From positions 538 through 64,537 of the forward strand of contig CACDEI010000003.1 in NCBI GenBank assembly GCA_902551695.1: a DNA stretch of 64,000 bases, written 5' to 3'. Both the position numbers and the translations under genes were made by a program. A model generated the notes under the pieces. It was not told the origin of the DNA. It did not search any database and saw only the letters and a list, made by a program, of their open reading frames with translations. Of the stretch, positions 12,435-52,988 are shown piece by piece. Position 1 is the first letter of the stretch. Each line of letters starts with the position of its first letter. The stretch comes from an uncultured Pseudomonadota bacterium (GTDB lineage Bacteria; Pseudomonadota; Gammaproteobacteria; Ga0077536).

Positions 12435-13139
12435 TTAGTCATGTTTCAGTGAGGCGTCAGATACATACGGGTTGAATTTTCGTTCTGCACCAAAAGTTGA
12501 TTCTGGTCCATGGCCTGGGATGAAGGTCACCTCATCACCTAGGGGCCACAATTTCTCGACTATAGATCTTATGAGCTGTTCATGGTTTCCTCTTGGAAAG
12601 TCGGTCCTTCCTATGGACCCCATAAAAAGAACATCTCCCACAAATGCGACCAAAGATTTGTGGAAAAATACCACATGACCGGGTGTGTGTCCTGGGCAAT
12701 GTAGGACCTCTAGAGTTTGATCTGAGAACGTTATTTTATCTCCATCCTCTAGCCATTTATCTGGTATAAAGGTGTCGGTAATTGGAAAGCCAAATCTAGA
12801 ACTTTGTTCAGGCATTGCGTCTAGCCAAAACTTATCTTCGAAATGAGGACCCTCGATAGGTATTGATAGTTCTGTTGCTAAGACTTTAGCTCCGCCGGCA
12901 TGGTCTAAATGCGCGTGCGTGAGCAAAATTTTTTCTATTTTCACATTTTGTTCTTTAACTGATTTTTTTATCAGGTCTAGGTCACCTCCGGGATCAATTA
13001 AGGCTCCGATTTTTGTGGCTTGCGACCAGATTAGAGAGCAGTTTTGCTGAAACGGTGTCACGGGTATCGTAACTCTCGCTAAATTTGCACTCAAAGCCTT
13101 ATCCTCAACATGTTTACTCTCTAACAAATGTTTGCTCAT
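12435..13139 (-). CDS. MBL-fold metallo-hydrolase (glyoxalase II-like)
   Basis: Motif THAHLDHAGG, with downstream HCPGHTPGH. I chose the internal ATG at 13139 because the longer ORF would overlap the upstream gene. Confidence 0.85.
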   Translation of the reverse strand: MSKHLLESKHVEDKALSANLARVTIPVTPFQQNCSLIWSQATKIGALIDPGGDLDLIKKSVKEQNVKIEKILLTHAHLDHAGGAKVLATELSIPIEGPHFEDKFWLDAMPEQSSRFGFPITDTFIPDKWLEDGDKITFSDQTLEVLHCPGHTPGHVVFFHKSLVAFVGDVLFMGSIGRTDFPRGNHEQLIRSIVEKLWPLGDEVTFIPGHGPESTFGAERKFNPYVSDASLKHD

Positions 13140-13147
13140 AACATAGG

Positions 13148-13543
13148 CTATCCGAAAGCTTTTTCTACAATATGGGTGTCCAAGTATTCTTTTACTTCCA
13201 CAATTTGTTTGCCTGACCAACGATAAACCCAACAATAAATATTGTTATAATTTCCGCCCGTTACAAGCTTCGACTTTCCAAAGCCTTGGCATACTATATA
13301 GTCACCTTCCCCTATTAAATTTTCCGCTGTAAGAGTAATGCCTCCATCTAAAGCCTCGTGGATAGGAGTAAGAAGTCTTTCTGTAACGTCCTGAATCCCA
13401 TCATACTGTCCAGAGAATTTTGTAGAGCCGATGATTGTCCATTTGACGTCGTTTGAGAACAGTGACATAAGGGGTTCAGAGTTTCCTTCCCCCAATTTTT
13501 CGAACCCTAGTAAGATTTTTTCCTTTCTTTCTTTTACATTCAT
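13148..13543 (-). CDS. SnoaL/NTF2-like fold protein
   Basis: 131 aa. The call rests on size and a pattern typical of ketosteroid-isomerase-like proteins (weak by-eye assignment). It sits inside a co-oriented array. Confidence 0.5.
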   Translation of the reverse strand: MNVKERKEKILLGFEKLGEGNSEPLMSLFSNDVKWTIIGSTKFSGQYDGIQDVTERLLTPIHEALDGGITLTAENLIGEGDYIVCQGFGKSKLVTGGNYNNIYCWVYRWSGKQIVEVKEYLDTHIVEKAFG

Positions 13544-13556
13544 CTCTAGTGTCCTC

Positions 13557-14729
13557 CTAAGGTGAGCTGTTTAGCACTTTCTTCACGATATTGACCCAAT
13601 AACTTGCCCCTATGGGTGTTACGTCATCGTTGAAATCGAATGTCGGACTATGAAGCATGCACCCTCCTTCTCCCGGTCCATTTCCGATAAATGCGTAGCA
13701 CCCTGGCTTTTCTTGAAGCATAAAACCAAAATCCTCTGAACCAGTTACCATATCGGTGCTTGGATCCACAAACTCCATACCGCAGACGTCTTGGGCGGCT
13801 GATAAAGCGATTCTAGTTTCTTTATCAGAGTTGACCGTGGCGGGATACCGTTTTTGGTAATGCCAACTAAATTCGCAATCATTTGCCTCACAGATATTTC
13901 CCGCAATTTTCTTCATTCGCTCTTCCACTAAATTTTGAACCTGTTCAGAAAAAGTCCTGACGGTGCCTCCTAGCTCAACTGATTTTGGGATGACAGCCCA
14001 GGCCTCTCCTCCGTGCATTCGGGTTACAGATAATACGGCGGGATCCGTCGGCTTGATATTTCTTGAAACTATAGTTTGCCATGCTAGTACAATTTGGGCG
14101 GCGACTTGAATCGTATCACTGGCTAGATGAGGAAGGGCCGCATGGCCTCCCTTTCCTTTAATTTCCGCTTTAAATGTGTCGAAAGCTGCCATAGCCGGTC
14201 CGGGCCGCATGGCCATTTTACCTACATCGAGGCCAGGCCAATTGTGGACAGCATAAACAGATTCGACTGGGAATTTTTCAAATAAACCGTCGTCCATCAT
14301 GGCGCGTGCACCTGCTTCTCCCTCCTCCGCGGGTTGGAAAATAAAATGAATGACCCCATCGAAAAAAAGGTTACTTGCTAAATATTCAGCAGCTGCTAAC
14401 AACATTACGGTATGCCCATCATGACCGCAAGCATGCATGACGCCTGGTCGTTTAGATTTGTGAGCAAAGTCGTTTAGTTCCTGAATAGGCAGTGCGTCCA
14501 TGTCGGCTCTGATACCAATGGCGCGCTTACTGCTACCATTTTTTAATGTTGCCACTAGTCCCGTTTTACCGATCCCTCTAGCTACGGTTAAGCCAAATTC
14601 ATTGAGTCTTTCGGCAACAAAATCTGAGGTGGCCACTTCTTGAAAGGCTAGTTCAGGGTGGGAATGAATGGTTTGACGCCATCCAGAATATTTTTTCTTA
14701 TGTTCTAAAAAATAAGGTATTATTTGCAT
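13557..14729 (-). CDS. M20D-family amidohydrolase (N-acyl-amino-acid or hippurate hydrolase-like)
   Basis: Motifs HPELAFQE, HACGHDGH and QPAEEG. 390 aa. Confidence 0.85.
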   Translation of the reverse strand: MQIIPYFLEHKKKYSGWRQTIHSHPELAFQEVATSDFVAERLNEFGLTVARGIGKTGLVATLKNGSSKRAIGIRADMDALPIQELNDFAHKSKRPGVMHACGHDGHTVMLLAAAEYLASNLFFDGVIHFIFQPAEEGEAGARAMMDDGLFEKFPVESVYAVHNWPGLDVGKMAMRPGPAMAAFDTFKAEIKGKGGHAALPHLASDTIQVAAQIVLAWQTIVSRNIKPTDPAVLSVTRMHGGEAWAVIPKSVELGGTVRTFSEQVQNLVEERMKKIAGNICEANDCEFSWHYQKRYPATVNSDKETRIALSAAQDVCGMEFVDPSTDMVTGSEDFGFMLQEKPGCYAFIGNGPGEGGCMLHSPTFDFNDDVTPIGASYWVNIVKKVLNSSP

Positions 14730-14765: not shown

Positions 14766-15536
14766 TTAGTTATAGAAGCCAAAGGCAGTCCAACCTCCGT
14801 CAATGACGAGTGTTTCGCCGGTCATAAATGAGGAACGATTGCTGCAAGAAAAAATTACGGCGTCGGTTACCTCCTGTTCTGAGCCAAGTCTCCTTTGAGG
14901 GGTACGCTTCTCTAGATCATTTAGCTTTATTTTCCCTTCCTCTGCTAAGCGATCGATTAAATCAGTGCGCACATACCCTGGAGCTACGCAATTCACCCTT
15001 ATTTTGTATTTCGCCCATTCGATCGCTAGTACTTTGGTCATCTGATCGATCGCAGCTTTGGTTGTACAGTATCCAAGCGCCGCAGGGAAGGCGTTTCTTC
15101 CAAGGATAGAGCCAATATTGACGATGCAACCTCCACCCTGGTCTTTCATCATAAGCCCTGCCGCTTGAGAACACAGAAAAATCGATTTGCAGTTAATGTT
15201 CATATGCTGATCCCAATTTTCCTCTGTCATCGCTAAAGTAGGCATCGGAAGAGAGACACCAGCGTTGTTTATAAGTATTTCTATGGGGCCATGGTCTTTG
15301 CTTATTTCTTCAAATGTTTGTTTAACAGCAAGACTATCATCTACGCGACAACCAAAGCCAAAGGCTGCTCCGCCTGATGAGGTAATTTCGTCGACTACCG
15401 AAGAGCAATTTTCCTTTGTCGTGGCCAAGCACATTACTTTGCTACCAAGTTTTCCAAAGTTGGTGGCGATGGTTCTTCCGATCCCTCTACTAGCTCCCGT
15501 TATTAGAACAATTTTTTCTTTAAATTCATCATTCAT
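14766..15536 (-). CDS. Short-chain dehydrogenase/reductase
   Basis: TGASRGIGR Rossmann motif, NNAG, and a YxxxK catalytic motif (YCTTK). Confidence 0.9.
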   Translation of the reverse strand: MNDEFKEKIVLITGASRGIGRTIATNFGKLGSKVMCLATTKENCSSVVDEITSSGGAAFGFGCRVDDSLAVKQTFEEISKDHGPIEILINNAGVSLPMPTLAMTEENWDQHMNINCKSIFLCSQAAGLMMKDQGGGCIVNIGSILGRNAFPAALGYCTTKAAIDQMTKVLAIEWAKYKIRVNCVAPGYVRTDLIDRLAEEGKIKLNDLEKRTPQRRLGSEQEVTDAVIFSCSNRSSFMTGETLVIDGGWTAFGFYN

Positions 15537-15554: not shown

Positions 15555-16286
15555 CTAAAAAGTCCAATCCTCAGTGAAAGGTCGAAGTTCGACCTCATTG
15601 CTCCAGGCCGATTTAGGTTGCAAATAAATCCACCAATAATTCTGAGCGACGTCATGAACATTAGCCGTTTCCTCTTCCTTAAAATTCTTTCCGTACCACT
15701 CGCGAATCAACGGGACATCAAGTGCGCAGTCGAGTCTTACATGTGATATGTGGACTCCTTTTTTTGAGTAAGCCTTAGCCAAGTTCTGAGACAAAGCCCT
15801 TAATCCGAATTTCCCGATGGCATAAATTGGATTTGTTCCCGAACCTCTCAAGGCTGCGGTTGCACTGGAAAAAATAATCTTACCTTGCTTTTTCTCTATC
15901 ATCCCTGGCAGTAAAACTTTGACGGCGGCAAAAGCTCCAACTACTTCAATTTTGTAGATACTCTCTAGGTCAGAAAAGGTCATATCTAACGGTTCTTTCA
16001 GTTCATAACCACCTCGAACGTTGTATATTAGAACTTCAATATTCTCGTAAGTTTCGATCACTTTTTGTGCTGCTTCGGTAATAGACTCAGGTTGCAGTGC
16101 ATCCCCAAAAAAATGTAAATGTTTACCGTCCTTAAAGGACTTTTGAGCTTCCTCTAGAGCTGCTCGACTCCCTTCTTTGCTTCGAGAGATTAAGGCGAGA
16201 TTAAAATTCTCTTCGGCAAACCTTCGAGAAAGTGCATGTCCAAGTCCCTCTCCAGCACCAATAATTACGCAAGTTTTATGTGACAC
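15555..16286 (-). CDS. Short-chain dehydrogenase/reductase (divergent)
   Basis: N-terminal IIGAGEGLG dinucleotide motif and a YAIGK catalytic region. Confidence 0.75.
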   Translation of the reverse strand: MSHKTCVIIGAGEGLGHALSRRFAEENFNLALISRSKEGSRAALEEAQKSFKDGKHLHFFGDALQPESITEAAQKVIETYENIEVLIYNVRGGYELKEPLDMTFSDLESIYKIEVVGAFAAVKVLLPGMIEKKQGKIIFSSATAALRGSGTNPIYAIGKFGLRALSQNLAKAYSKKGVHISHVRLDCALDVPLIREWYGKNFKEEETANVHDVAQNYWWIYLQPKSAWSNEVELRPFTEDWTF

Positions 16287-17499
16287 TGTTTTTCCTTTTT
16301 GTTAAAAAATAAACCAATATAGTGGAAATTATGAGCCCTAAAATAGCAATAAATACTAACATTTGAAAATAAAGCTGATGACCAATTACCCCTGGTGCAG
16401 AGTCAAGCAACCGACCGGCTATTGGCGCAAAAAAGATATCTGGTGTGTAGCCGACGAACGAGATTAATCCTACAGCTAGGCCAGTTTGGTGTTTTGGTAT
16501 TTTACTTTCTTCAAGGATAGCGAAATAAATTCCCCGTAACGCAAATACTCCCGCGCCACTGACAGCGACTGTTGAGATAAACAGCCAGTGATTTTGGTTG
16601 GGTACGGAGGTTGCAGGAAAAATGTAAGTGAGAATTAATACACTAAAAAATACTATAATACTTTTCGAGGGGCTAAATTTATCTGCTATCAAGCCTGCAG
16701 CTATCGCACTGAACGGGCGCGCATAAGCTATGCCGGCCGCGAGTCTGGCAGATTCCGTTTCACTCATTCCTAGCACTTGGTTGAAGTACAAAGAATAATT
16801 ATCAATTCCCTTGTAACAACAATAGCATACCAATAAAACTCCGGCCTGAAGCCATAAAAATTTATTTTGGATGAGGTTCGGTTGAGAGCTTCTGTCCAAG
16901 GATACTTTCGTTATACTTCCTTTAGGAATTGCTAATAGTATAAGTATGCCTGCTAAAAATGTTGCGATTGTATAATAAACTATAAGAGCATCAATCCCAT
17001 TTCCGGATGCTATGGAATTGCTAAGAATAGTTACTCCTCCAGAAGCTAGTATCGCGGCGGCTAATCCTCTTCCTCCGTCCAGAAACCCAAATGCTCGGCT
17101 CTGGAACAATGTTCCCCCCCACTCGCGGGTGGATCGAATCAATGGCGCCCAAAATAATAAAATGGTTGTCAGCCCCCAATATCCATACAATATTTTAAGT
17201 TGGAGAACGTTTGGATCGTAAAGGAGAATTAAGCCTCCTAGGCTTGTGGTGATTAACGATAGCGCCATTAAGGTACGGGGACGGAAGCGGTCAGCGATAG
17301 GTCCGCCAAAAAAATAAGCCATCATTGCTGTTATCCCATAGACTGCAAAAATCTCACCCAGTTCCGTGTTTGAAAGGTTAGTATTTGCTAGGAAAGAGGG
17401 ACGATAGTATCTGCTTAAGTGGAAAGGTAGACTAAAAATAATTTCGCCAGCTAAAACAAGGGTTAATAAGGTTAACCATTTGTTGCGGTAGTTATTCAA
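16276..17499 (-). CDS. MFS transporter
   Basis: 407 aa, about 12 predicted TM segments, and a GGPIADRFRPR loop motif. Confidence 0.8.
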   Translation of the reverse strand: MNNYRNKWLTLLTLVLAGEIIFSLPFHLSRYYRPSFLANTNLSNTELGEIFAVYGITAMMAYFFGGPIADRFRPRTLMALSLITTSLGGLILLYDPNVLQLKILYGYWGLTTILLFWAPLIRSTREWGGTLFQSRAFGFLDGGRGLAAAILASGGVTILSNSIASGNGIDALIVYYTIATFLAGILILLAIPKGSITKVSLDRSSQPNLIQNKFLWLQAGVLLVCYCCYKGIDNYSLYFNQVLGMSETESARLAAGIAYARPFSAIAAGLIADKFSPSKSIIVFFSVLILTYIFPATSVPNQNHWLFISTVAVSGAGVFALRGIYFAILEESKIPKHQTGLAVGLISFVGYTPDIFFAPIAGRLLDSAPGVIGHQLYFQMLVFIAILGLIISTILVYFLTKRKNSVT

Positions 17500-17514: not shown

Positions 17515-17928
17515 CTAAGACGTATGCTTTAGACCAGGAGACTCTTTTTTAAGCGCATTAGCTTTTTCTCGGGCTTGTTTTTCAGTAGGAAAAACCAGGT
17601 CTTCATAAAGTACTACAGGGATATTTGGATCTACACATAATTGACCTACAGCAAATTGTTCTGGCTCGGGTGAGACCACCACAAACCAACCTTTAACTGG
17701 GCCAGGCCTGTATCCGTTGAGTTTATATAGTAACTTTGCAAAATCAGCATAAGGTCCTTTAAGTTCTAGCGTAGGATATATTTTCTCATCTTTGATGGAG
17801 CTGCTTGAAGACCAACGCCAGGGTAGAGTAGTGGCTCCACTCTCGTTAAGAGACTGCGCTCCTCTAATTGCAGGATGCAACCACCAATAGTGATCTCTTT
17901 CTAGTGGGACCTCCTCTTTCGAGCTCAA
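17515..17928 (-). CDS. Small protein distantly related to the two dimethylformamidase-small-subunit-like ORFs
   Basis: 137 aa. Its start overlaps the stop of the 802-aa gene by 4 nt. The C-terminal half aligns by eye with ORFs 20350..20784 and 31698..32018. Confidence 0.45.
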   Translation of the reverse strand: MSSKEEVPLERDHYWWLHPAIRGAQSLNESGATTLPWRWSSSSSIKDEKIYPTLELKGPYADFAKLLYKLNGYRPGPVKGWFVVVSPEPEQFAVGQLCVDPNIPVVLYEDLVFPTEKQAREKANALKKESPGLKHTS

Positions 17929-20333
17929 GGTAGTGGTCCTTCTTTAAGAAATCCATTGATAACGTTTTGCATAATTTTAGACACATTGTTATCGTAGTTA
18001 TTATGTTGCAAAGAACCACACCACGACATCGAGCCAACTGAGAAAACTGCGCCATTTTCTGGGGTTTTGTAGTACACGATATCCGCACGTGTCCATGGAT
18101 TTGTTTCACCAGTTCCTCCTGGGATATAACCTCTGGCATTAAATGTCGATTCTTCAGTAACGGACACGAAGATATCATTGTGCCCTTCGGAGTGCGCGAG
18201 AAGGTAAGCGTTGTGAGGTGTCCCTAACTCCAGGTCGTATCGATCCAGCTCTAGTCCTGCAGCTCCCCCTCCCACTAAACCGAAATTACCAATGGGCTCA
18301 TTTTTACCAATGCCTTTAAAAATCCATTTGCATTCGGGTAGTTCGCTGTCAGGCGCCCTTCTGTAGTAAGAGGAATAGGTCAGGCCAAAGGAAGTGAAAG
18401 TCACGCCTAGTAGTTTGCTCATAACTCTTCCGCGGACCCGCCAAAGACCACCGTGCTTACCATCAAAAGCATTACAATATTCTCCCGGTGTGACTGTCCA
18501 GGCTCGGGTCCCGTTATCACCCTTTCGTACCTCAATAATATTGGGGTTATCAGGGTGTGGTACAGTGATCCAATAAAAACCGTTTGCAGCCAAATACATC
18601 CAACGGCCGCCCTGCAGTTGGTAGTCGTGATATGCATCCATTTGTTCTTCTGAAATATATTCAGGATGGTGTCCAGTCAACGCGATCGGATATTTTTTGA
18701 GGAGCGACACGCCTTCTCTGTGTATATCCTCGTCGGTATAGATGTCCACGTCGTACCCCAATTCATAAAGCCAGTCGACCAAATGTAGATCTGCATTAAA
18801 CTGCCAAATGGAAGGTGAAAGTATATGTAGATATTTTGGTCTCATGTTTAGTATGGGACGAAGTCGAGAAGATATGTTTACGCCCCAACCATCTCGATAG
18901 CTTGTGTATGTTCCAAGACCATAACCTCGTTCTTGATTAAGTAATAAATCTTCTGGCTGAAGGAGAGGGACTTGTCCTGTTAACAATTCAGCGATAACGG
19001 AATTTACACTTAGATTATCGTTGGCGTAAGCCATATAGCTGTGTGTCGACATAACAAGCGCAATGGAGGCTGTTGTTGTTCCAGTGGGAGGCTTTACGAA
19101 GAAAGGAATGTAATCTTCATGGTCGGGTGTAGACTTGCCGTTAACTCGAAGTCGGGCCGCGTACACACCGCTTGTCATTTTTTCCGTGATTTTAAGTGTA
19201 AAGCTGTTTTTCCATCTTGCATCGTCAACAGACTCATCGTGAAAATGAATAGCCCCGTATTCTTGCGGGCCATGCTTAAAACTCATGAAATGAGAGGACC
19301 AATTGTGGCCTATGACACCTCGTACGGGTAAATTCACTCCTACCCCGTGCAGATGATTTGGCGAGCAGTCTGTGATTTTTGTGGACGCTGCGTCAATCGA
19401 GATGTTTTCACAAAAATCCCAGAACCCTATTATAGAGGACCTAAGTTCGGTGGGAATTCCCTCAAGCCTCTGGTTATTAAGTAGGATCTCTATCTGATCC
19501 CGTCCGAGCGCTGCATTTGAGAGTCTGGGTCGCTCTATTTTGCCGTTAAATTTTGTAGTATGTTCGGGAACTTCAAGGGGCTCTTTCAGGTGGTCGTAGT
19601 GTCCACCGGATAACAGCCGACCAGTATGTGTTTCGGATGTGCTGGCGGCCATTAAAAGAGGACATTCGTTTTGGCTTAGCGAGATGTCTGGAGCGCTGTA
19701 TTTTTTTACTACCTCAGTTTCTTCCCGAGGATGCAACATGCTCATCCCATGACCGCCGTTTGTGGCCGTGAGATAGGGTATCTGTCCTATTACGACTTGC
19801 CCTTTTTCTGCGTCATAGCTTGCGAAAACTTTGTACCAGACTTTCCTCAACAGAGGCTTTCTGCTACTGAAACTCGACACTTTGCCTCTACCGCCTCCTA
19901 GTTTAAATTCCAATTCTCCCTCTTCATTGATAAAAAGCCCATAACCTTTCTTTTTCTTTGCATCCCATTTCGAGATGATAGCTTGCTCCCCAACTGGAAC
20001 TCCCTCTACATCCAACTTAGGGGTGGTTGGATAGATAAAGGCGGATACTGTCAAACTTTTAGAATTAAGTTTTTCGTTGTCAGGTACAAGAATATAGCTT
20101 CCTGCCATCAGTGGTTGGTTTAAGCCTTTGTAACTCCCATTAACGCTGGTGCGAATCACTTTTTCCTTGAACCCTGGTCCATCAGGATTAGTGTCGCCAT
20201 TGATCAGTCTGACAATATCTACTTTGTATTCTTCATTGAACTCAGAGTGGACGTAAAAATTAAGCTCCTCACCAGGAGTTACGGAACACTTATCTGTGTA
20301 CCCCGTTATTCGCAGCATATAATTCTGTTTCAT
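17925..20333 (-). CDS. N,N-dimethylformamidase large (beta) subunit-like protein, paralog 1
   Basis: 802 aa. A LamG-like N-terminal half is followed by a C-terminal domain with conserved blocks AIHFHD, SYMAYAN, SRLRPILNMRPKY and GGGAAGLELDR. All four blocks are shared with ORF 29396..31669. The family call is from memory of DmfA2-like proteins. Confidence 0.7.
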   Translation of the reverse strand: MKQNYMLRITGYTDKCSVTPGEELNFYVHSEFNEEYKVDIVRLINGDTNPDGPGFKEKVIRTSVNGSYKGLNQPLMAGSYILVPDNEKLNSKSLTVSAFIYPTTPKLDVEGVPVGEQAIISKWDAKKKKGYGLFINEEGELEFKLGGGRGKVSSFSSRKPLLRKVWYKVFASYDAEKGQVVIGQIPYLTATNGGHGMSMLHPREETEVVKKYSAPDISLSQNECPLLMAASTSETHTGRLLSGGHYDHLKEPLEVPEHTTKFNGKIERPRLSNAALGRDQIEILLNNQRLEGIPTELRSSIIGFWDFCENISIDAASTKITDCSPNHLHGVGVNLPVRGVIGHNWSSHFMSFKHGPQEYGAIHFHDESVDDARWKNSFTLKITEKMTSGVYAARLRVNGKSTPDHEDYIPFFVKPPTGTTTASIALVMSTHSYMAYANDNLSVNSVIAELLTGQVPLLQPEDLLLNQERGYGLGTYTSYRDGWGVNISSRLRPILNMRPKYLHILSPSIWQFNADLHLVDWLYELGYDVDIYTDEDIHREGVSLLKKYPIALTGHHPEYISEEQMDAYHDYQLQGGRWMYLAANGFYWITVPHPDNPNIIEVRKGDNGTRAWTVTPGEYCNAFDGKHGGLWRVRGRVMSKLLGVTFTSFGLTYSSYYRRAPDSELPECKWIFKGIGKNEPIGNFGLVGGGAAGLELDRYDLELGTPHNAYLLAHSEGHNDIFVSVTEESTFNARGYIPGGTGETNPWTRADIVYYKTPENGAVFSVGSMSWCGSLQHNNYDNNVSKIMQNVINGFLKEGPLP

Positions 20334-20349
20334 TTTCTATTAGCCCCTG

Positions 20350-20784
20350 TCACATTTTTATGTCATATTTTTCGCAAAGCGCTTTAAGTCTCTTTAAAAA
20401 AATCGCATGCTCCGCATCTTCTCGGGTAGCGTATTTTTCTTTCGTGATTCGGACGTTTCCCCCGCGCCTGCCAGGAAGAACGCCAATCGAATATTCTTTC
20501 CACGGTACTGTTTCTACAATTGTGTGTTTTCCAGTTTGGGGCACCATTCTCAACATGTCTACGAGCTGAGCTAGAGTGCTGCTTTGAAGTGGTGGTGGCG
20601 TACCAGGTAATGTGGGGCCACCCCGAGGAAAAGTCCTGTGCTCTGCAATTAAGGCATCTCGACTTTCTTTGTTCTTAAGGTGATTCAAAAGGTAGGTCCG
20701 CACATTATAATCATCTACGGCTCGAAAAGAATAATTATCTCGCAGTGCAGTGGTCTTCTGTTCTGCCCCAACTTTCTTTTTCAT
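20350..20784 (-). CDS. Candidate small (alpha) subunit partner of the DMFase-like enzyme
   Basis: 144 aa, 16 nt upstream of the large-subunit-like gene. This is the dmfA1-dmfA2 gene order. It is homologous by eye to ORF 31698..32018. Confidence 0.5.
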   Translation of the reverse strand: MKKKVGAEQKTTALRDNYSFRAVDDYNVRTYLLNHLKNKESRDALIAEHRTFPRGGPTLPGTPPPLQSSTLAQLVDMLRMVPQTGKHTIVETVPWKEYSIGVLPGRRGGNVRITKEKYATREDAEHAIFLKRLKALCEKYDIKM

Positions 20785-21003
20785 AACCGATGCTCCTGTA
20801 GGTTGAAATTTATAGTGGCAAGAAAGGCGCTTCCCTCCATTATCACTTGGAGAGGATAAATGGTAAACATTTTTTTAATCACGTTTAGGGTATGAATCAA
20901 TCTGGAAGTGTTAGAATATAAATAGTGGCAACTTAAACTGTGACTATATAAAGTAGTGAGTATTCGCTATTTATCGTTAAAACCATTGAAAATCGAGGTA
21001 GAG

Positions 21004-22209
21004 ATGTACGCAGATATCAGAGAGCCTGTTGCGGAAATAAAAGACCGCTTGGAAAAATTCATGGACCAGCATGTTTACCCCAATGAGGAAACGCATAAGC
21101 TGGAGCTAGCAAATGCGGAGAATCGTTTTGGTTCAATGGCATTAATGGAAGATTTAAAGTTAAAAGCTAGAGCCGAAGGGCTATGGAATTTGTTTGTGCC
21201 TAAATCATTCGGGGGCTTGTCAAATTTTGACTATGCTCCTCTTGCGGAAATAATGGGCAGGGTTTTCTGGAGTCCGGAAGTGTTTAATTGTAATGCTCCT
21301 GACACCGGCAATATGGAAGTTTTCATGAAATATGGAAATGAGGAACAACGCCAACAATGGCTTAAGCCGTTGCTAGATGGCGAGATTCGATCGGCCTTTG
21401 TAATGACTGAACCAGATGTGGCATCTAGTGACGCAACTAATATTAGAACGACTATTTTGAGGGATGGTGATGATTACGTAATTAACGGGAGAAAGTGGTT
21501 TATTACTAATGCCTTATATGAGCGAACCAAGATTTTTATTGTTATGGGTAAGTCTTCGCCGGACAATCCGAATAGGCATCTTCAACAAAGCCAGATTTTA
21601 GTGCCCAAGGAAACAAAAGGAATCAAAATCAAACGTGCCCTAACCACACTAGGCTATGATGAGGCGCCCATAGGTCATGCGGAAGTATTATTTGAGGACG
21701 TTCGAGTACCTGTAGAAAATATGTTGCTTGGCGAGGGTAGGGGGTTTGAGATTGCTCAAGGCCGTTTGGGGCCTGGAAGGATTCATCATTGTATGCGCTT
21801 GATAGGCGCTGCTCAGCGTTCATTGGAGTTCGCATGTAAAAGAGTGAATCTAAGAAGCACTTTTGGAAAAAAATTATCGGAGCACCAGTCAGTTCGCGAA
21901 GAAATCGCCAAAAGCTTTGCAGAAATAGAGCAAGCCCGTCAATTGACTCTGCTTACTGCAAAAAAAATGGATGAGGAGGGTGCAAAAAACGCTAAGGATT
22001 TGATCGCTGCTTCAAAAATAACTGTCCCTCTCATGGCGCAGAATGTAATCGACCGGTGTATGCAAGTTCATGGTGCTGGGGGCTTGACTCAAGATTATTT
22101 TATGGCGGAAGCATTCAATTATGCCCGTTGGTGTAGGCAAGCAGACGGCCCTGATCAAGTGCATATGATGGCCTTGGGCAAAGAAATTATTAAACGTTAC
22201 AGCGATTAA
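21004..22209 (+). CDS. Acyl-CoA dehydrogenase family protein
   Basis: Typical ACAD architecture (MTEPDVASSDATN, GRKWFITN, C-terminal helical domain). The ATG at 21004 has a GAGG Shine-Dalgarno. The ORF is open from 20956. Confidence 0.9.
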   Translation: MYADIREPVAEIKDRLEKFMDQHVYPNEETHKLELANAENRFGSMALMEDLKLKARAEGLWNLFVPKSFGGLSNFDYAPLAEIMGRVFWSPEVFNCNAPDTGNMEVFMKYGNEEQRQQWLKPLLDGEIRSAFVMTEPDVASSDATNIRTTILRDGDDYVINGRKWFITNALYERTKIFIVMGKSSPDNPNRHLQQSQILVPKETKGIKIKRALTTLGYDEAPIGHAEVLFEDVRVPVENMLLGEGRGFEIAQGRLGPGRIHHCMRLIGAAQRSLEFACKRVNLRSTFGKKLSEHQSVREEIAKSFAEIEQARQLTLLTAKKMDEEGAKNAKDLIAASKITVPLMAQNVIDRCMQVHGAGGLTQDYFMAEAFNYARWCRQADGPDQVHMMALGKEIIKRYSD

Positions 22210-22859: not shown

Positions 22860-24047
22860 ATGAGTCCCAAAGTAAGATTTAGTTTTTATGAGAGTGTGCT
22901 GGGCAAATGTGCTTTAGTCTGGGGCGGTGAGGGCGTTTTACGTAACTTCCTGCCCTTCGAAAGCCCTTCTGAAACGCAAAATGAAGTTTTACATGAATTT
23001 GCTGAGGCAGTTGAAACGGGCCTCAACAAAGAAATGCAAAAGGTGGTGTCGAAATTGAGACTTGCAATTTCAGGTGCCAAGGTAGATTTCAATGATGTGT
23101 TGATCAACAAATCAAATTGGTCCCCTTTTAATAAAAAGATCTATGAGTACACTCAGTCTATCCCTACCGGTTCGACCACCACTTATGGTTTTTTGGCAGA
23201 CGCTATAGGTCATCCCAATGCTTTCAGAGCCGTAGGTACTGCTTTAGGCAAGAACCCGTTGCCAATAATAATTCCCTGTCATCGAGTTTTGGGCAGAGAC
23301 GGTAGTCTTCGCGGATTCTCTGCGTCTAACGGTATAATTACAAAGCAAATTCTACTCCGGCTGGAGGGATGCGAGGTTCAACCCCCCTTTATAGGTTATG
23401 ACCCGCTAGAATCCTCTGATTTCCTAGCTAAATCAGATCCCAGATTAGCTAAATTGATCAAACTTGTCGGCCCTCCATGTATTAACATACCTCGAAAAGT
23501 TCAAATTTTCGAGCCTCTTTCAAGGGCAATTATTAGCCAACAAATTAGTGTAAAAGCCGCCCAAAGTATTAGCAGGAAGTTGACTGAAGAATTCGGTAAG
23601 AAGAATGGGAATTTAGATATCGAACGCATTTTCAAAGCTCGACATGAAAAATTAAAAGCCTGTGGGCTATCTGAAAACAAAGCTCAGTATCTTAAAGAAC
23701 TTTCAAAACATGCTCGAGATAAGCAACTACCCTCTGGTGGAGAGTTAAAATGTATGTCCAACTCGGAGGTCGTAGATTCCCTTACAAAACTAAAAGGAGT
23801 TGGAAAATGGACTGCTGAGATGATACTGATTTTTCAGTTGGGCCGAGCCGATGTGTTGGCGGTTGATGACTTGGCGTTGAGAAAAGGTCACGGTATCTTG
23901 TTAGGTAAGAAAAATCATGAGTCTAGTCGCGAACAACTTGAAACATATGCGAAGCGGTGGAGGCCTTATAGGAGTGCAGGTTGTTGGTATCTGTGGAGGC
24001 TAAATAAAATTTCACTAATGAACGACTATTTAACAGAGGTTGGTTAA
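22860..24047 (+). CDS. Fusion protein: O6-alkylguanine-DNA methyltransferase (N-terminal) plus DNA-3-methyladenine glycosylase II (HhH-GPD, C-terminal)
   Basis: An IIPCHRV active-site motif lies in the N-terminal half. An AlkA-like HhH motif, LKGVGKWTAEMILIF...VDDLALRKG, lies in the C-terminal half. Confidence 0.85.
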   Translation: MSPKVRFSFYESVLGKCALVWGGEGVLRNFLPFESPSETQNEVLHEFAEAVETGLNKEMQKVVSKLRLAISGAKVDFNDVLINKSNWSPFNKKIYEYTQSIPTGSTTTYGFLADAIGHPNAFRAVGTALGKNPLPIIIPCHRVLGRDGSLRGFSASNGIITKQILLRLEGCEVQPPFIGYDPLESSDFLAKSDPRLAKLIKLVGPPCINIPRKVQIFEPLSRAIISQQISVKAAQSISRKLTEEFGKKNGNLDIERIFKARHEKLKACGLSENKAQYLKELSKHARDKQLPSGGELKCMSNSEVVDSLTKLKGVGKWTAEMILIFQLGRADVLAVDDLALRKGHGILLGKKNHESSREQLETYAKRWRPYRSAGCWYLWRLNKISLMNDYLTEVG

Positions 24048-24063
24048 GCTGTTTATGCCGATA

Positions 24064-25473
24064 TCAGTCTAAAAGGGGTCTCATTTTATGCCAATTGGTC
24101 ATTTTTTCGTAGGCTGAAGAGATTTTTATGAGAGTGCTCTCTTCCCCTTTTTTGCCGATAAATTGCATGGAGGTGGGCAGACCATCTTCAGTGAATCCAT
24201 TTAACAAAGTGATAGATGGGTGTCCAGAAAAGTTAGTGGGTGCGGAGAACCTTACCAAAGGGGGAATTTCTTCGATGGGAGATACTGCTTGAGGGGGCAC
24301 TGCCGAGATTGAAGGTGCAGGGTTCGGCATGCCCGGACATACCATTACATCGATTCCGCTTAATAGCTCGTTTATGAGAGCGTTGGTTGATTGGCGCTGT
24401 CTGGTGGCTCTCGCATAAGCTACAGAATCTACTTTTTCACCATATTCTAGGAGTGCACGAAATACGGGGCCGTAGTCCTCCCGATGTTTTGGAAAAAATT
24501 GTTGGTGACTTATTAGGGCTTCAACAGAGCATATAGTCATCCAGTGTTCTGCTGCATCGTAGAGTTCAGGCGCCGTCAGTTCTAGAATAGTCGCTCCATT
24601 TTCTTCCAATAATTCTATGGATTTGAAAAGTGCAGTGGTCATTTCTGGATCGGTGTCAGTTGTGCAATAAACCCTATCGATGCCTATTTTTAATCCACTT
24701 ATGTCCTTTCCAATTTCCTGAAGATAGTTAGTCTCCTTATCTAGTCTAGTCGAGGCATCTCTTGGATCACGCCCTTCTAGGATTTGTAGCATTGCAGCCG
24801 CGTCCCAAACACTCCTAGCCATTGGTCCGATGTGGTCTAAAGTATCAGCAAGAGGAAAAACACCATAGCGACTTACTTTGCCAAAGGTTGGTTTAATTCC
24901 TACGATTCCACATGCAGCGGCGGGAAAACGGATGGAACCCCCTGTATCCGTCCCAAGGCTAGCGAAGCAAAGAGAGGCGGCAGTTGCCGCGCCGGAGCCG
25001 GATGAGGAGACTCCTGCCCAGTGATCTTTGTTCCAGGGGTTTCTCGGAAACTCTAGTTTGGGGTGGTAACCATATAGCGCAAATTCAGTTAAGTTAAGCT
25101 TGCCGAGCATCACACTACCCGCGGCCTGCAGTTTTTCAACAACGGTTGCATCATAGCTAGGTACAAAATTTTCCATAAGCGTGGATGCACATTTTGTCGG
25201 AATATCGGCGGTATATATCAAATCTTTGTACGCAATGGGTATGCCGTGAAGGGGGCCAAGACATTCTCCTTTCAGAATCTGCTTCTCTGCTAACTCTGCA
25301 TCCGAAATGGCTTTATCTGCAGTAACAAGGGAATAACTGTGAATTTCATCATCGTACTTCTCGATCCGAGATAGCATCCCCTTTGTCAACTCAGTAGGTG
25401 AAATCTCCTTGTTCTTTATTAAAGGCGCGAGCTCTTGGATATTTTTTGTCAGTAGTTCCGAAAGATCACTCAA
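24064..25473 (-). CDS. Amidase-signature family amidase
   Basis: GVSSSGSGAA and GTDTGGSIRFPAA signature motifs. 469 aa. Confidence 0.9.
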   Translation of the reverse strand: MSDLSELLTKNIQELAPLIKNKEISPTELTKGMLSRIEKYDDEIHSYSLVTADKAISDAELAEKQILKGECLGPLHGIPIAYKDLIYTADIPTKCASTLMENFVPSYDATVVEKLQAAGSVMLGKLNLTEFALYGYHPKLEFPRNPWNKDHWAGVSSSGSGAATAASLCFASLGTDTGGSIRFPAAACGIVGIKPTFGKVSRYGVFPLADTLDHIGPMARSVWDAAAMLQILEGRDPRDASTRLDKETNYLQEIGKDISGLKIGIDRVYCTTDTDPEMTTALFKSIELLEENGATILELTAPELYDAAEHWMTICSVEALISHQQFFPKHREDYGPVFRALLEYGEKVDSVAYARATRQRQSTNALINELLSGIDVMVCPGMPNPAPSISAVPPQAVSPIEEIPPLVRFSAPTNFSGHPSITLLNGFTEDGLPTSMQFIGKKGEESTLIKISSAYEKMTNWHKMRPLLD

Positions 25474-29395: not shown

Positions 29396-31669
29396 TCAAA
29401 ACGTGTCATCAAGAAGCTTCTTGTTAGAAATGAATCTATCTAATACATTTTTCGTAATGCGGGACACGTTATTTTTATAATTATTATGAGACAGAGAACC
29501 CGCCCATGCTATGGAACTTGTAGAAAAAACGCCGCCATTATTTTGAGTGGGGAAAAAAGCCATGTCTGCTCTAACAAGCGGGTTTTCTTGTCCTCCCAGC
29601 CCGGGGTAATTAATTAAAATTTCTTCATTCACCACGAGATAAATATCAGTATGGTTGACCGAAGAAGCTAGCAGATATGTAGAAGGAGGCGTTCCTAAAC
29701 CTACATCCACTCGATCGAGCTCTAGTCCGGCAGCCCCTCCACCTATTAACCCAAAGTCGCCAATTTTCTCGGTTTTGCCAACCCCCTTCATGATCCAAGC
29801 AACTTCTTTCCTGTGACTATCAGGTTTTCTTTCGTAGTAGGAGGAAATATCGAAGCCCTGCGCTGTGAAGCCTGTTCCTACGATCTTTTGCGGCGGACGC
29901 CCGTTTCTTCTCCATAGTCCTCCATACTCGCCGGTAAATGCATGATAGTACTCTCCAGTCTTTGGTTCCCATCCACGTATTCCACCTTCATTTCTTCGTA
30001 CCTCTATTATCCCCGGTTCACTTTCGTGAAATGCGATCCGCCAGTACCAACCGTTTGCCCCTAGGTACATTAGGCGCCCCCCTTTCTGTTGGTACGCCAT
30101 CATCGCATCCCACATATCTTTCGAGTGATACTCAGGATGAGATGAGCTGAGAACCACCTTGTATTTTTCAATCGATTTTAGACCCTCGTAATGTAATTCT
30201 TCGTCAGTTATCACGTCATAGTCATAATTCATTGCCTCTAGCCAATTAGTGATGTGCGTGTCGGCATTGAACTGCCATAGACTAGACCCTGATCCACCAA
30301 GCCAACTCCTATACTTGGGTCGCATATTGAGGATTGGCCTCAACCTGGAGGAATACGCCACTCCCGAGCCGTCACTGTGATGGTCGTAGCAGCTCGCGCC
30401 GTATTCTCGGTGTTCGTTTCTATACAGATCTTGTCTTTCGTGTTCTACGAGTCGTCCGCCTAGCAACTGCGCAACCGGCACATCGGTTCCCATATGTTCA
30501 TTTGCGTAGGCCATGTAACTTGCAGTGGGTAATAAGAAGCAAATTTTAGCCGTAGCTCTTCCCCTAGGCGGAAGTACGGCGAAAGGGACATAATCTTCCT
30601 CCTGTAGAGAAGAGCCGCACCTCAATCGAGCAGCGTACAACCCGCTCCTGAAGGATTTTGGAATAGTCAAGGTAAAGTCAACCTCCCAGTCAGCATCGTG
30701 GACATCGTCATCGTGAAAATGTATTGCCCCATACTGATCCTGTGCGTTCTTCCAATTGAGTTCGTCACCAGTCCAGTTCCAACCCGTCATTGCTCTGGTT
30801 GGCATATTCACCACACCCCCATGAAGTCGATTTGCAGAGCGGTCTGTGACGGTTGTCCCTTGTATATCGTTTGAAAAGTCCCACCTAGCAATCAAACTTT
30901 CGATTTTAACCTGTTCGGAATCCAATCTTTTCAAAGCCTCTTCTTGGCCTGGAGAAATTGGCGAATGGCAAATCGCGGGAGAGTCAATTTTTCCATTAAA
31001 ATGTCGATGACAAACCAGTCGATTCTTATCTTCTGATGTGTAAAGGGCTCCTATGGTCAAAGGAGCGTCATTTGTATTCAAAGAAACTGTTCCCGTAACT
31101 TTTCTTGAAATGTTAGCCTTGTCTTTGGTACCTGTGTGGCTATGCAGAGGTTCTTGTCGTATGCTGGCGATTTGTGTTTCTGAATCATAACTGACGGTGA
31201 TAAAATACCATTCATTCGATAGCAGCGGAGCCTTGGTCTGTAATTTAAAAACTTTTTTTCGGCTCAATCCGATCTCCAAGGCCACCCCTTGGTTTTTTTC
31301 TGCTACTCCAAAATTAAATCCGCTGTTGGTTTTAGGAGACCAATTTCCTAAAATTGTTTGCGCTCCTTTCTCCGGAGTCGTAGGCCAAATAAAAACTTGA
31401 GCTGAAAAGCTCCTTAAAGCATTAAAGTGGCTGCTACTATCGATTTTCGCATAGGATCCGGCATGTATTTTCTGTTGTCGTCCTTTGTACTTTCCGCTCG
31501 TCCTGCTCTTTACGACCTTTTCTTTGTAACCAGGGCCCCCCGGGTTCAAATCGCCGCATATAAGTTTTACAAATTCTACATCGAAAGATTTGTTTTCGCA
31601 GTTCACCATAAAATCTATGGTTTCCCCAGGTGCTGCACTCATTTTGTTTGCGTATGCGGTTATTTTCAT
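29396..31669 (-). CDS. N,N-dimethylformamidase large (beta) subunit-like protein, paralog 2
   Basis: It has the same conserved blocks as 17925..20333. I chose the ATG at 31669 (MKITAYANKMSAAPGETIDF aligns with MLRITGYTDKCSVTPGEELNF). The ORF is open to 31750 but would overlap the upstream small ORF. Confidence 0.7.
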   Translation of the reverse strand: MKITAYANKMSAAPGETIDFMVNCENKSFDVEFVKLICGDLNPGGPGYKEKVVKSRTSGKYKGRQQKIHAGSYAKIDSSSHFNALRSFSAQVFIWPTTPEKGAQTILGNWSPKTNSGFNFGVAEKNQGVALEIGLSRKKVFKLQTKAPLLSNEWYFITVSYDSETQIASIRQEPLHSHTGTKDKANISRKVTGTVSLNTNDAPLTIGALYTSEDKNRLVCHRHFNGKIDSPAICHSPISPGQEEALKRLDSEQVKIESLIARWDFSNDIQGTTVTDRSANRLHGGVVNMPTRAMTGWNWTGDELNWKNAQDQYGAIHFHDDDVHDADWEVDFTLTIPKSFRSGLYAARLRCGSSLQEEDYVPFAVLPPRGRATAKICFLLPTASYMAYANEHMGTDVPVAQLLGGRLVEHERQDLYRNEHREYGASCYDHHSDGSGVAYSSRLRPILNMRPKYRSWLGGSGSSLWQFNADTHITNWLEAMNYDYDVITDEELHYEGLKSIEKYKVVLSSSHPEYHSKDMWDAMMAYQQKGGRLMYLGANGWYWRIAFHESEPGIIEVRRNEGGIRGWEPKTGEYYHAFTGEYGGLWRRNGRPPQKIVGTGFTAQGFDISSYYERKPDSHRKEVAWIMKGVGKTEKIGDFGLIGGGAAGLELDRVDVGLGTPPSTYLLASSVNHTDIYLVVNEEILINYPGLGGQENPLVRADMAFFPTQNNGGVFSTSSIAWAGSLSHNNYKNNVSRITKNVLDRFISNKKLLDDTF

Positions 31670-31697
31670 CAGACTTTCATCCTCCCAACGGTATTTT

Positions 31698-32018
31698 TTA
31701 CTTCTGAAGCTTCTCTCCGGTAAGGTGTTTCCAGCGCTCTCTAAAAACATACCATTCGGCGTCAGCTAAATTTTGAAACCTCAGGTTAGTGGGTTTCACT
31801 GGTTCTCCAGGTATCCCAGATGTTTTTGCTAGAATCCACTCCTTGTTAGATTCGCTAACGATTAGGCAATGTTTCTTTCCCATCGGCGCACCACGCATCA
31901 CATTGAGAAGCCTTTGCAATTGTGGGCTGTGGTGACCTACGGGATTTTCTTTGAATTCTTCAATAAGATCTGCGAACTTTGTGCTGCATAGATCAGATAT
32001 ATCAAATGAGCTTGCCAT
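31698..32018 (-). CDS. Candidate small (alpha) subunit partner of DMFase-like paralog 2
   Basis: 106 aa, immediately upstream of the large gene. By eye, LQRLLNVMRGAPMGKKH...NLADAEWYVFRERWKHL aligns with LAQLVDMLRMVPQTGKH...TREDAEHAIFLKRLKAL in ORF 20350..20784. Confidence 0.5.
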   Translation of the reverse strand: MASSFDISDLCSTKFADLIEEFKENPVGHHSPQLQRLLNVMRGAPMGKKHCLIVSESNKEWILAKTSGIPGEPVKPTNLRFQNLADAEWYVFRERWKHLTGEKLQK

Positions 32019-32113: not shown

Positions 32114-32737
32114 ATGAATGGTGCACACGATCTGGGTGGTATGCAGTGCTACGGCTCAATAAGAATAGAAAAAGACGAACCGATTTTCCATGATGAATGG
32201 GAAAAACGTGTTTTTGCAGCCACAATGGTGTCTTTTGGAGCATTGGGTTCGATAGACGCGTTTCGCCACGCTATCGAGAGAATGGGTGCAGAGAAATATT
32301 TAAGCACTACCTACTATGAACACTGGCTGGCTGCATTGGAGATGAGAATTGAAGAAACTAAATTACATTCTAAAGCAAAGTCCGATGTACCTTTGACCCC
32401 TGAAGATGTGGATGCCATTGTTCCTACGGGCGGAAATTATTTTAGGGAGGGGGTTGATTCAGAAATCCGTTTTGCAACTGGCGATAGGGTCAGAGCAAAA
32501 AATATTAATCCTGCCGGACACACACGTCTACCTCGATACATACGGGGTAGAGAAGGGGAAATTGTAACCAATAGGGGAAATTTTGTCTTTCCTGACACTG
32601 TTGCTCATGATTTAGGCGAATCTGCGCAACCTTTGTACTCTGTTCGCTTTGAGTCGGCGGAACTATGGGGAAGTGAGGAAGGTCGGGATGCAGTGTATAT
32701 AGACCTGTGGGATAGTTATTTGGAGAAGGCCGAATGA
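32114..32737 (+). CDS. nthB: Nitrile hydratase beta subunit
   Basis: N-terminus [10 protein letters not shown]...[14 protein letters not shown] is typical of NHase beta. It overlaps the alpha gene by 4 nt. Confidence 0.9.
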
Positions 32738-33375
32738 GTAGCAACCATAAGCATTCAGAACCCGCTAATCCCTACCTCGAAAAGCGAAGAAACGGAGAGG
32801 AGACCAGCGAATTAGAAAAAAGAGTCTCTGATATCGAAGCACTTTTGATATCAAAAGGGATAGTCTCCAAAGAATCTTTGGATAGAATGATTGAGATATA
32901 CGAGAAAGACCTTGGCCCAATGAACGGTGCTAGAGTGGTAGCTAAGGCATGGACTGATGATGAGTATAAAAGCAGGTTATTGCAAGATGGGACAAGCGCA
33001 ATAGCTGAACTCGGTTTTAGCGGATTGCAAGGTGAGCACATGGTTGTAATTGAAAATACGCAAGAGGTTCATAACGTCGTCGTTTGTACCTTATGCTCCT
33101 GCTATCCATGGCCTGTGCTGGGTCTTCCCCCGTCGTGGTATAAGGATGCACCTTACCGTTCCAGAATCGTTTTAGAGCCTCGGGAGGTGTTGGAGGAATT
33201 TGGAACTTTCTTGCCTGAACATCAAGAAATTCGTGTGTGGGATAGTAGTGCTGAAATTCGATATATGGTTTTGCCCCGCCAACCCGAGCAATCTAAGGGT
33301 GCGAGTGAGGATAAGCTTGTTGGGTTAGTTACTAGAGACTCTATGATAGGCGTTGGCCTCCCGAAACCTTCATGA
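32734..33375 (+). CDS. nthA: Nitrile hydratase alpha subunit, cobalt type
   Basis: The metal-binding motif VCTLCSCY has Thr and Tyr, the Co-type signature. The beta-before-alpha gene order is also typical of Co-type enzymes. Confidence 0.93.
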
Positions 33376-33674
33376 ATGACCTAAAAGGCTCTCAAGTTAA
33401 AGCCGAAATCTCAATGATGGAGGGCAGAGATTCTCTGCCTAGAAAAAGCGGAGATTTAGTTTTTCATGAGGAGTGGGAGAAGCGCGCCTTCGCAATGGCG
33501 ATAGCGCTGTATAGCAGTGGATATTATCAGTGGGAAGAATTCAGAGACATTCTAATTAGTGAGATTAATTCGAGCGGAGAGACGGCTGCCAACCCTAAAC
33601 CCGAGAAGCCTGGATATTATGAACATTGGCTTTCTTCTTTGGAGAAGTTGCTACAAAGGAAGGAAATCGTATAG
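33372..33674 (+). CDS. Nitrile hydratase accessory (activator / subunit-swapping chaperone) protein
   Basis: 100 aa. [18 protein letters not shown] mimics the beta-subunit N-terminus [17 protein letters not shown]. It has a 4-nt overlap with nthA. Confidence 0.8.
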
Positions 33675-41407: not shown

Positions 41408-41734
41408 GTGATTAGAAATATTATCTGTGCCTCGAGCTTGATATTCGCTTTTTGTTCTCCCTCTCAGGGCTCAAACGAAAGTGGCCATAATGAGAATAGT
41501 AAACCTGCTGATTCCCAAGCTTGCGTGGTTAACTATCCGGCCTTTGAGGTCGAAGTTCCTCATTTCGATTTAATGCAATGTCCTGAAAGCGAAAATGTGT
41601 CTGTGTCGGAAGGTATTTGTAGGCTAGCAATAATAGGTAATAAAGCCTACCTTTATACATTCAAACTGAAAAGTGGTTCGCTATGTCTATCTAACGCTAA
41701 AGAGGTGCCTTTGGCAGATTACTTTTCTGACTGA
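41408..41734 (+). CDS. Small Cys-containing secreted or lipoprotein candidate
   Basis: 108 aa with a GTG start, a hydrophobic N-terminus (IFAFCSPS, a possible lipobox) and 6 Cys. Confidence 0.4.
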   Translation: MIRNIICASSLIFAFCSPSQGSNESGHNENSKPADSQACVVNYPAFEVEVPHFDLMQCPESENVSVSEGICRLAIIGNKAYLYTFKLKSGSLCLSNAKEVPLADYFSD

Positions 41735-52980: not shown

Positions 52981-52988
52981 TTTTTAGG

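Follow-up and report, generated by a model that had tools for sequence, protein, structure and literature searches.

A 64,000-nucleotide stretch of DNA from an uncultured Pseudomonadota bacterium (GenBank assembly GCA_902551695.1, contig CACDEI010000003.1, positions 538 to 64,537; hereafter the window) contains, at positions 17515-20784, a locus that probably encodes a three-component variant of the N,N-dimethylformamidase (DMFase)-type Fe(III) amidohydrolase. The locus comprises a gene for an 802-residue large protein, a gene for a 144-residue protein just upstream of it, and a gene for a 137-residue protein (the third protein) directly downstream. These three open reading frames (ORFs), together with the 16-nt gap between the first two (20334-20349) and the 4-nt overlap between the last two, had been described in an earlier note made from the sequence alone, and all were found as described there; they lie on the minus strand. 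The occurrence of DMFase-family enzymes in marine bacteria is already known; Pacific metaproteomes contain DmfA of alpha- and gammaproteobacterial origin, which has been linked there to ammonia supply (PMC9477243). What appears to be new is the third gene, which is conserved, unnamed and, as judged from sequence profiles and structural models, a paralogue of the small-subunit gene, and which marks a three-gene variant apart from the characterised two-gene enzymes. No description of such a gene ("dmfA3") was found in the family libraries or the literature searched.

The earlier note had proposed that the 802-residue protein is a DMFase large (beta) subunit with a LamG-like N-terminal half and a second domain, and both parts of this proposal held. 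Pfam profiles matched Laminin_G_3 at residues 78-180 (E = 1.4e-9; 38.7 bits, cut-off 27.6) and then DMFA2_C (PF20254) at residues 340-782 (E = 1e-87; 295.4 bits, cut-off 27). A search of PDB sequences aligned residues 8-802 with residues 5-760 of the solved DMFase large subunit, 6LVB_A (39% identity, E = 3.5e-172), and all four of the motifs picked out previously (AIHFHD, SYMAYAN, SRLRPILNMRPKY and GGGAAGLELDR) were present in the translation. In the DMFase of Paracoccus sp. strain DMF (6LVB, 6LVC, 6LVD and 6LVE), an alpha2beta2 or (alpha2beta2)2 enzyme, Fe(III) is held by Y399, Y440 and E521, residues H519, N547 and E657 are essential, and F693 from a neighbouring large subunit gates the pocket and is said to exclude larger amides (PMC7686228). 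When the window protein was aligned with 6LVB_A, the expected Tyr-Tyr-Glu iron ligands were located at Y436, Y476 and E558, the catalytic residues at H556, N584 and E695, and the gate at F731, so that seven of the seven functionally implicated residues were identical. Moreover, the window protein had the same three-part architecture as the Paracoccus enzyme and aligned with it from end to end, and a homologous small gene was situated just upstream in both systems; the two differ in the modest identity of their large proteins and in the third gene that follows the large gene in the window. On every feature open to testing, the sequence placed the 802-residue protein in the DMFase large-subunit family. 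By inference from the solved Paracoccus enzyme, it would hold a single Fe(III) by means of two tyrosinates and a glutamate, and the amide C-N bond would be hydrolysed by a metal-activated water, with E695 serving as base, N584 forming the oxyanion site and H556 assisting.

The 144-residue protein encoded in the dmfA1 position had likewise been put forward as the small subunit, and this was supported both by sequence and by predicted fold. Used as a single sequence, it matched the solved small subunit 6LVB_B at E = 2.8e-4, and the profile of its family did so at E = 3.9e-11. Its AlphaFold2 model (predicted local distance difference test [pLDDT] score, 82.8) was matched to 6LVB_B by Foldseek with an E value of 5.4e-6, a probability of 1.00, TM scores of 0.64/0.73 and a root-mean-square deviation of 3.2 Å over 123 columns, and the model reproduced the fold of the solved small subunit, in which long N- and C-terminal helices surround a small sheet. 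The Pfam copy that was scanned was without PF26354 (DMF_alpha), and the assignment to that family was made through precomputed hits, which were present on all listed homologues of the 144-residue protein. A DMF_alpha ORF was also found 5' of the large gene in every locus for which an upstream flank was available. These data identify the 144-residue protein as a true DmfA1-type small subunit, which would play the canonical part; activity of the Paracoccus enzyme depends on its small subunit, which also makes up part of the substrate entrance (PMC7686228). Several homologues of this protein (P0056, P0069 and P0087) have been named "inner-membrane translocator" by NCBI, which looks like a misannotation of small subunits. 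The description of the enzyme as rare in the earlier note was appropriate for the small subunit, which has been recognised in 41 genomes only, and inappropriate for the large subunit, homologues of which occur in 4.5% of complete genomes (10.1101/2021.03.18.435917).

The distribution of the third gene was assessed by scanning all ORFs of the fetched loci (numbered L001 onward) with profiles of both small-protein families; the locus counts given here depend on what the pattern-based scans returned. Where the large protein was at least 66% identical to that of the window and a downstream flank was present (the close clade), all 27 species-representative genomes had an ORF of the third-protein family directly 3' of the large gene. 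These were Gamma- and Alphaproteobacteria, including Roseobacter weihaiensis H9 (L009) and metagenome-assembled genomes (MAGs) labelled Pelagibacteraceae, Rhodobiaceae and Rhodospirillales. In a second clade, with large genes 56-58% identical, a shorter downstream form of 122-167 residues, consisting of the C-terminal domain only, was present in all eight loci. A third clade (large genes 42-58% identical) was represented by five metagenome trios with a downstream ORF of about 80-110 residues; the query for the metagenome scan consisted of six sequences, the shortest downstream forms. Two complete trios were also found within one genome, in tandem at L008, L010, L011 and L019 and divergently at L007, and in these pairs one trio was of the long-form type (large gene 67-76% identical to that of the window) and the other of the short-form type (56-58%). 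The trio was present in dozens of independent genomes, and every member of the third-protein family whose genomic place was examined adjoined a DMFA2_C gene. For both small ORFs, the conservation beside orthologues of the large gene that the earlier note would lead one to expect was confirmed. No third-gene ORF was detected in any frame at the second DMFase-like locus of the window (described below) or at L026, L028, L030, L052, L056 and L058. In a neighbour-joining tree of the large proteins, constructed without bootstrap support, the trios formed three clades interleaved with two-gene loci; because of this interleaving, the tree fits an old third gene with losses, the alternative being repeated gain.

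The third gene is under purifying selection. For the only locus pair unsaturated at synonymous sites, the ratio of nonsynonymous to synonymous substitution rates (dN/dS) was 0.078 for the third gene, compared with 0.083 and 0.020 for the upstream small gene and the large gene, respectively; in the remaining pairs synonymous sites were saturated and 49-83% of third-protein residues were kept. Thirty-two homologues were collected, down to 46% identity and all of them unnamed or "hypothetical", and when 1.84 billion representative proteins were searched with the family profile, only 55 clusters at 50% identity were obtained. Twenty-one residues were invariant across 30 homologues, and the AlphaFold2 model of the third protein had a pLDDT of 82.5. 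When the window was compared with L001, amino-acid identity was 72% for the third protein and 83% and 88% for the two structural genes. The overlap of start and stop codons, NTGA (ATGA, TTGA or GTGA), was kept in 10 of the 11 loci examined, the eleventh having TGATG, and the third gene of the window is translationally coupled to the large gene through its TTGA. In two database entries (P0032 and P0190), the C terminus of a large subunit runs on into the start of a third protein; rather than true fusions, these look like the outcome of gene calling over a frameshift or misassembly at the 4-nt overlap. Searches of Pfam, NCBIfam and PDB (by sequence and by family profile) returned no match to the third protein, a Pfam scan of all its homologues gave weak, inconsistent hits only, and a precomputed PF26354 match was present on just one of the 32.

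The relation between the two small proteins was examined at the level of sequences, family profiles and models. BLASTP gave no alignment between them at E ≤ 100. When narrow profiles of the two families were compared by hhalign, the match was at E = 0.016 with a probability of 2.9%, in the same register as that obtained with broad family alignments, for which the probability was 97.5% and the E value 8.8e-12 over 61 columns. In this register, residues 60-123 of the third-protein family (in the numbering of P0001, which is 91% identical to the window ORF) were placed on residues 68-128 of the 144-residue protein. Moreover, the DMF_alpha profile matched five distant members of the third-protein family in a single register (E = 8e-7 to 1.3e-5), and conversely the upstream DmfA1-type ORFs of L052, L056 and L057 matched the third-protein profile at about 1e-11 to 1e-13 in addition to the profile of their own family. 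The models agreed with this. An order of helix, three strands and helix was common to both, with elements at H61-70, E76-88, E91-99, E105-113 and H116-129 in the third protein and at H69-79, E87-93, E97-102, E112-118 and H121-139 in the 144-residue protein. In the third protein these form a C-terminal alpha-beta-beta-beta-alpha domain of about residues 60-129, preceded by 58 residues that constitute an arm with little helix and a conserved motif rich in Trp, DHYWWLHPxxRG ... LPWRW. Before residue 61 the model contained only a short helix (42-46), the long N-terminal helices of the small subunit being absent. The C-terminal pattern that the earlier note had seen in both small ORFs was therefore recovered, by the broad hhalign comparison. 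Taken together, profiles and models show that the C-terminal domain of the third protein is homologous to that of the small subunit and that the protein is an old, diverged paralogue; it was filed as such, and not as a DMF_alpha member, because it has no long N-terminal helices and its whole-chain model had no PDB match.

The characterised operons of Paracoccus aminophilus plasmid pAMI2 and Methylobacterium sp. DM1 plasmid pLVM1 consist of a LuxR regulator gene (dmfR), dmfA1 and dmfA2, and no third gene was found in them in any reading frame; the pLVM1 large protein is 99.6% identical to 6LVB_A. The window locus also differs from these operons in having no adjacent LuxR-type regulator and in its setting, as they reside on plasmids of sludge or soil methylotrophs whereas the window derives from the chromosome of an uncultured marine gammaproteobacterium. 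The chromosomal location is evident from genes for PBP1A, PriA and arginyl-tRNA synthetase elsewhere in the window, and the nearest relatives of the source bacterium carry the label Gammaproteobacteria. Its open-ocean origin is indicated by 98-100% identity, across common genes, to the single-cell genome "uncultured proteobacterium AG-453-E14" (L034), and by the exact 137-residue protein that gene callers reported on Tara Oceans scaffolds. The closest trios found in cultured strains were those of Aminobacter niigataensis DMFA1 (plasmid p1, NZ_CP132959.1) and strain MD1 (pcAMD1, NZ_OX341519.1). Gene order and the 4-nt overlap were the same as in the window, the large proteins were 65% and the third proteins about 37-42% identical to those of the window, and both small genes were annotated "hypothetical protein". 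The neighbours differed, with a flotillin gene, a two-component system and an ATP-binding cassette (ABC) transporter in DMFA1, a LuxR regulator and transposases in MD1, and major facilitator superfamily (MFS), short-chain dehydrogenase/reductase (SDR) and M20 genes in the window.

Membership of the family does not by itself fix the substrate, since residues 261-797 of the large protein also matched N-acetyl-(R)-beta-phenylalanine acylase (E about 1e-122 with 8I5A and 8HUY; also 8I59), a member of the same large-subunit family that is remoter than DMFase and whose substrate, an N-acetyl amino acid, is far larger. For the window enzyme, a small N-substituted (form)amide is the probable substrate, with the adjacent MFS transporter as its likely importer. 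The products would feed nitrogen and carbon scavenging, and the downstream M20 amidohydrolase and dehydrogenases may act on related or later compounds. The earlier note had favoured an N-substituted amide rather than N,N-dimethylformamide (DMF) itself. This preference was a little weakened by the retention of the catalytic residues and the F693 gate and by the presence of 65%-identical trios on the Aminobacter plasmids. That the enzyme is a true DMF or N-methylformamide hydrolase, supplying marine bacteria with nitrogen and carbon from methylated formamides, is quite conceivable, if short of what we would expect on balance. In addition to the conserved pocket and the p1 orthologue, it would be consistent with the position of the pcAMD1 trio, directly after a LuxR-type regulator as in the dmfR-dmfA1-dmfA2 operons, with the Peripla_BP_6-type ABC transporter and ammonium transporter genes of alphaproteobacterial loci, and with the DmfA proteins seen in Pacific metaproteomes; on the other hand, identity to the characterised enzyme is only 39%, the acylase points to a wide substrate range in the family, and the neighbours in the window (M20, two SDRs, the SnoaL-like and metallo-beta-lactamase [MBL]-fold proteins and an acyl-CoA dehydrogenase) suggest a larger substrate. 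The strain name DMFA1 presumably reflects growth on DMF; a literature search on this Aminobacter strain found no paper.

As for the third protein, we infer that it associates physically with the enzyme. It most likely acts with it, either as a second small subunit, which we prefer, or as an assembly factor. As a duplicate of the small-subunit C-terminal domain in which a Trp-rich arm has replaced the long N-terminal helices, it would bind the large subunit through the domain that it has in common with DmfA1. Several observations weigh against this interpretation. The characterised enzymes are active with two subunits and their operons are without a third gene, so that the fold does not in general depend on a third protein. 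The helices that it lacks are those that wedge between large subunits in the solved enzyme, and a Foldseek search of PDB with its model did not return 6LVB_B, the best matches being SH2-like domains (E = 0.57). Nor did the large subunit show a sizeable insertion or a group-specific set of residues tracking the third gene; the comparison yielded a 7-residue insertion at residues 106-112, which only the closest clade has, plus two single columns. With regard to the substrate, the neighbours of the trio differ by clade: gammaproteobacterial trios have MFS and M20 genes beside them, and alphaproteobacterial trios have flotillin, an ammonium transporter and a binding-protein-dependent ABC transporter. 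In L039 (Aminobacter niigataensis DMFA1 p1) and L044 (a Rhodobiaceae MAG), a flotillin gene (Band_7 and Flot domains) and a two-component system precede the trio and a Peripla_BP_6-type ABC transporter follows it 3'; an ammonium transporter gene was present in L044, and the annotation of L039 lists none. In SAR11, HIMB59 and Pseudothioglobus, a DMFase gene and an "inner membrane translocator" have been reported as parts of flotillin-associated rhodopsin clusters (PMC10308929).

If the third protein were solely a maturation or assembly factor, it would occupy the place of the small subunit on the large one for a time, for instance while iron is loaded or the oligomer assembles. We regard this as rather unlikely, even though a paralogue of a structural subunit encoded immediately 3', devoid of the inter-subunit wedge helices of DmfA1 and evolving faster than both structural genes (as seen in the comparison with L001), has properties that might be expected of such a factor. 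The same pattern was seen in the window itself, where a 100-residue accessory protein with a NHase_beta_N match (8e-11) is encoded at 33372-33674, at a nitrile hydratase cluster. Nitrile hydratase activators have a subunit-swapping role, and they are likewise short structural-subunit paralogues encoded straight after the genes of a metal-dependent hydrolytic enzyme; they belong to a protein family unrelated to the third protein, and a chaperone role for the latter would follow from analogy only. Arguing the other way, the conserved start/stop overlap suggests output near the level of the large subunit, as is more typical of a subunit, the invariant residues include no evident metal-binding motif, and the canonical DMFase matures in recombinant hosts from two genes (PMC7686228). 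It is improbable that the third protein works apart from the enzyme, for instance as a small regulator or a substrate- or product-binding protein, with synteny reflecting merely a common pathway. The weak, SH2-like Foldseek matches and a Trp-rich N-terminal motif without counterpart in DmfA1 might be read in that way, but the third gene trails the large gene in three clades whose other neighbours are wholly different, and overlaps it in a conserved manner. The possibility that the 137-residue ORF is a chance reading frame and not a gene, as its TTG start, its absence from all family libraries and its lack of BLASTP similarity to any named protein might suggest, is practically nil and was ruled out by the invariant residues, the synteny (its position is kept in more than 40 loci) and dN/dS, along with the 62-91% amino-acid identity that persists at saturation of synonymous sites and the confident model.

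The three-gene locus bears on an enzyme whose 2-Tyr-1-Glu iron site is unusual and two of whose folds were called new by its authors. Since DMF is described as a man-made solvent, the natural role of DMFase has been in question; open-ocean relatives carry a conserved third component missing from the studied enzymes, and its unnamed family (about 55 clusters) has been encountered to date exclusively next to DMFase-like large genes. A two-gene expression construct for a marine enzyme of this kind may fail or give misleading results, and the third gene merits annotation. Only tentatively, as a rather doubtful extension, can a distinct marine class of Alpha- and Gammaproteobacterial DMFase-like enzymes be imagined, heterotrimeric with a second small subunit derived from the first, with a substrate range unlike that of the two-subunit DMF enzymes and with a natural marine amide as the ancestral substrate.

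Table 1. The three-gene locus and its surroundings (positions are those of the window)
Feature	Position	Strand	Remarks
Homologue of the DMFase small (alpha) subunit, DMF_alpha (PF26354)	20350-20784	minus	144 aa, ATG start
Predicted catalytic large (beta) subunit of a DMFase-family mononuclear-iron amidohydrolase	17925-20333	minus	802 aa, ATG start
Putative third component, unannotated	17515-17928	minus	137 aa, TTG start
TTGA overlap (TGA of large gene, TTG of third gene)	17925-17928	minus	read from the sequence
MFS transporter	16276-17499	minus	15 nt 3' of the third gene; Pfam MFS_1, 1.3e-20
SDR	15555-16286	minus	Pfam adh_short
SDR	14766-15536	minus	Pfam adh_short
M20 amidohydrolase	13557-14729	minus	Pfam Peptidase_M20; NCBIfam TIGR01891 "amidohydrolase", 354 bits, above cut-off
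SnoaL-like protein	13148-13543	minus	Pfam SnoaL_2, weak, 1.2e-4
MBL-fold hydrolase	12435-13235	minus	Pfam Lactamase_B
Acyl-CoA dehydrogenase	20956-22209	plus	divergent from the trio; Pfam Acyl-CoA_dh_N/M/1
Intergenic region between the small-subunit and acyl-CoA dehydrogenase genes, presumed promoter region	20785-20955		171 nt; position only

As shown in Table 1, the co-directional array that the earlier note had listed downstream of the trio was recognised by Pfam and NCBIfam profiles. The same downstream gene order was found in L001-L006, L027, L031 and L034, and L017, L021, L033 and L043 kept the MFS and M20 genes only; the nearest gammaproteobacterial loci and a Tara contig likewise had an MFS gene 3' of the trio. 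The acyl-CoA dehydrogenase gene was equally placed in L001-L006, L016, L017, L021, L027, L031, L033 and L045. Two weak sigma-70-like matches were located on the minus strand of the intergenic region (20944-20915 and 20867-20839), the number of matches in the scanned region being at chance level. Counts from the promoter and terminator scan were at chance level as well, with no terminator within the co-directional array, and scans of the window for Rfam families and tRNAs gave no hits. A 104-residue ORF at 17864-18178 (minus strand), in another frame inside the large gene and overlapping the start of the third gene, is presumably spurious.

The window also contained a second DMFase-like locus, at 29396-32018 on the minus strand. 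Its large gene was 42% identical to the first and 41% identical to 6LVB_A; Y415, Y455, E540, H538, N566 and E677 were kept, and the gate residue F693 was replaced by I713. A 106-residue small-subunit homologue was encoded upstream (BLASTP to the 144-residue protein, 6e-8), and there was no third gene. The 784-residue large ORF overlapped the small gene by 53 nt; because its alignment with the 802-residue protein begins at residue 27-28, the start is probably Met28 (about 31669). Divergent from this locus was the nitrile hydratase cluster (32114-33674, plus strand), encoding a beta subunit with matches to NHase_beta_N and NHase_beta_C, an alpha subunit (NHase_alpha, 5e-86) whose VCTLCSC motif marks the cobalt type, and the accessory protein discussed above. 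With an amidase gene at 24064-25473 (Pfam Amidase, 4e-106) and the nitrile hydratase, the region between 12 and 34 kb was rich in nitrile and amide hydrolases. Farther along, the regions 41719-42882 and 49530-54248 (both minus strand) contained a DUF6607 protein (4e-66), an FGE-sulfatase/PEGA protein, and ORFs of 488 and 419 residues without a Pfam match at E = 1e-6. A 395-residue fusion was encoded at 22860-24047 (plus strand), joining a methylguanine methyltransferase DNA-binding domain (DNA_binding_1, 8e-29) to a HhH-GPD glycosylase domain (3e-15), and a gene with both of these domains was found at the matching place in L045, on the opposite relative strand.

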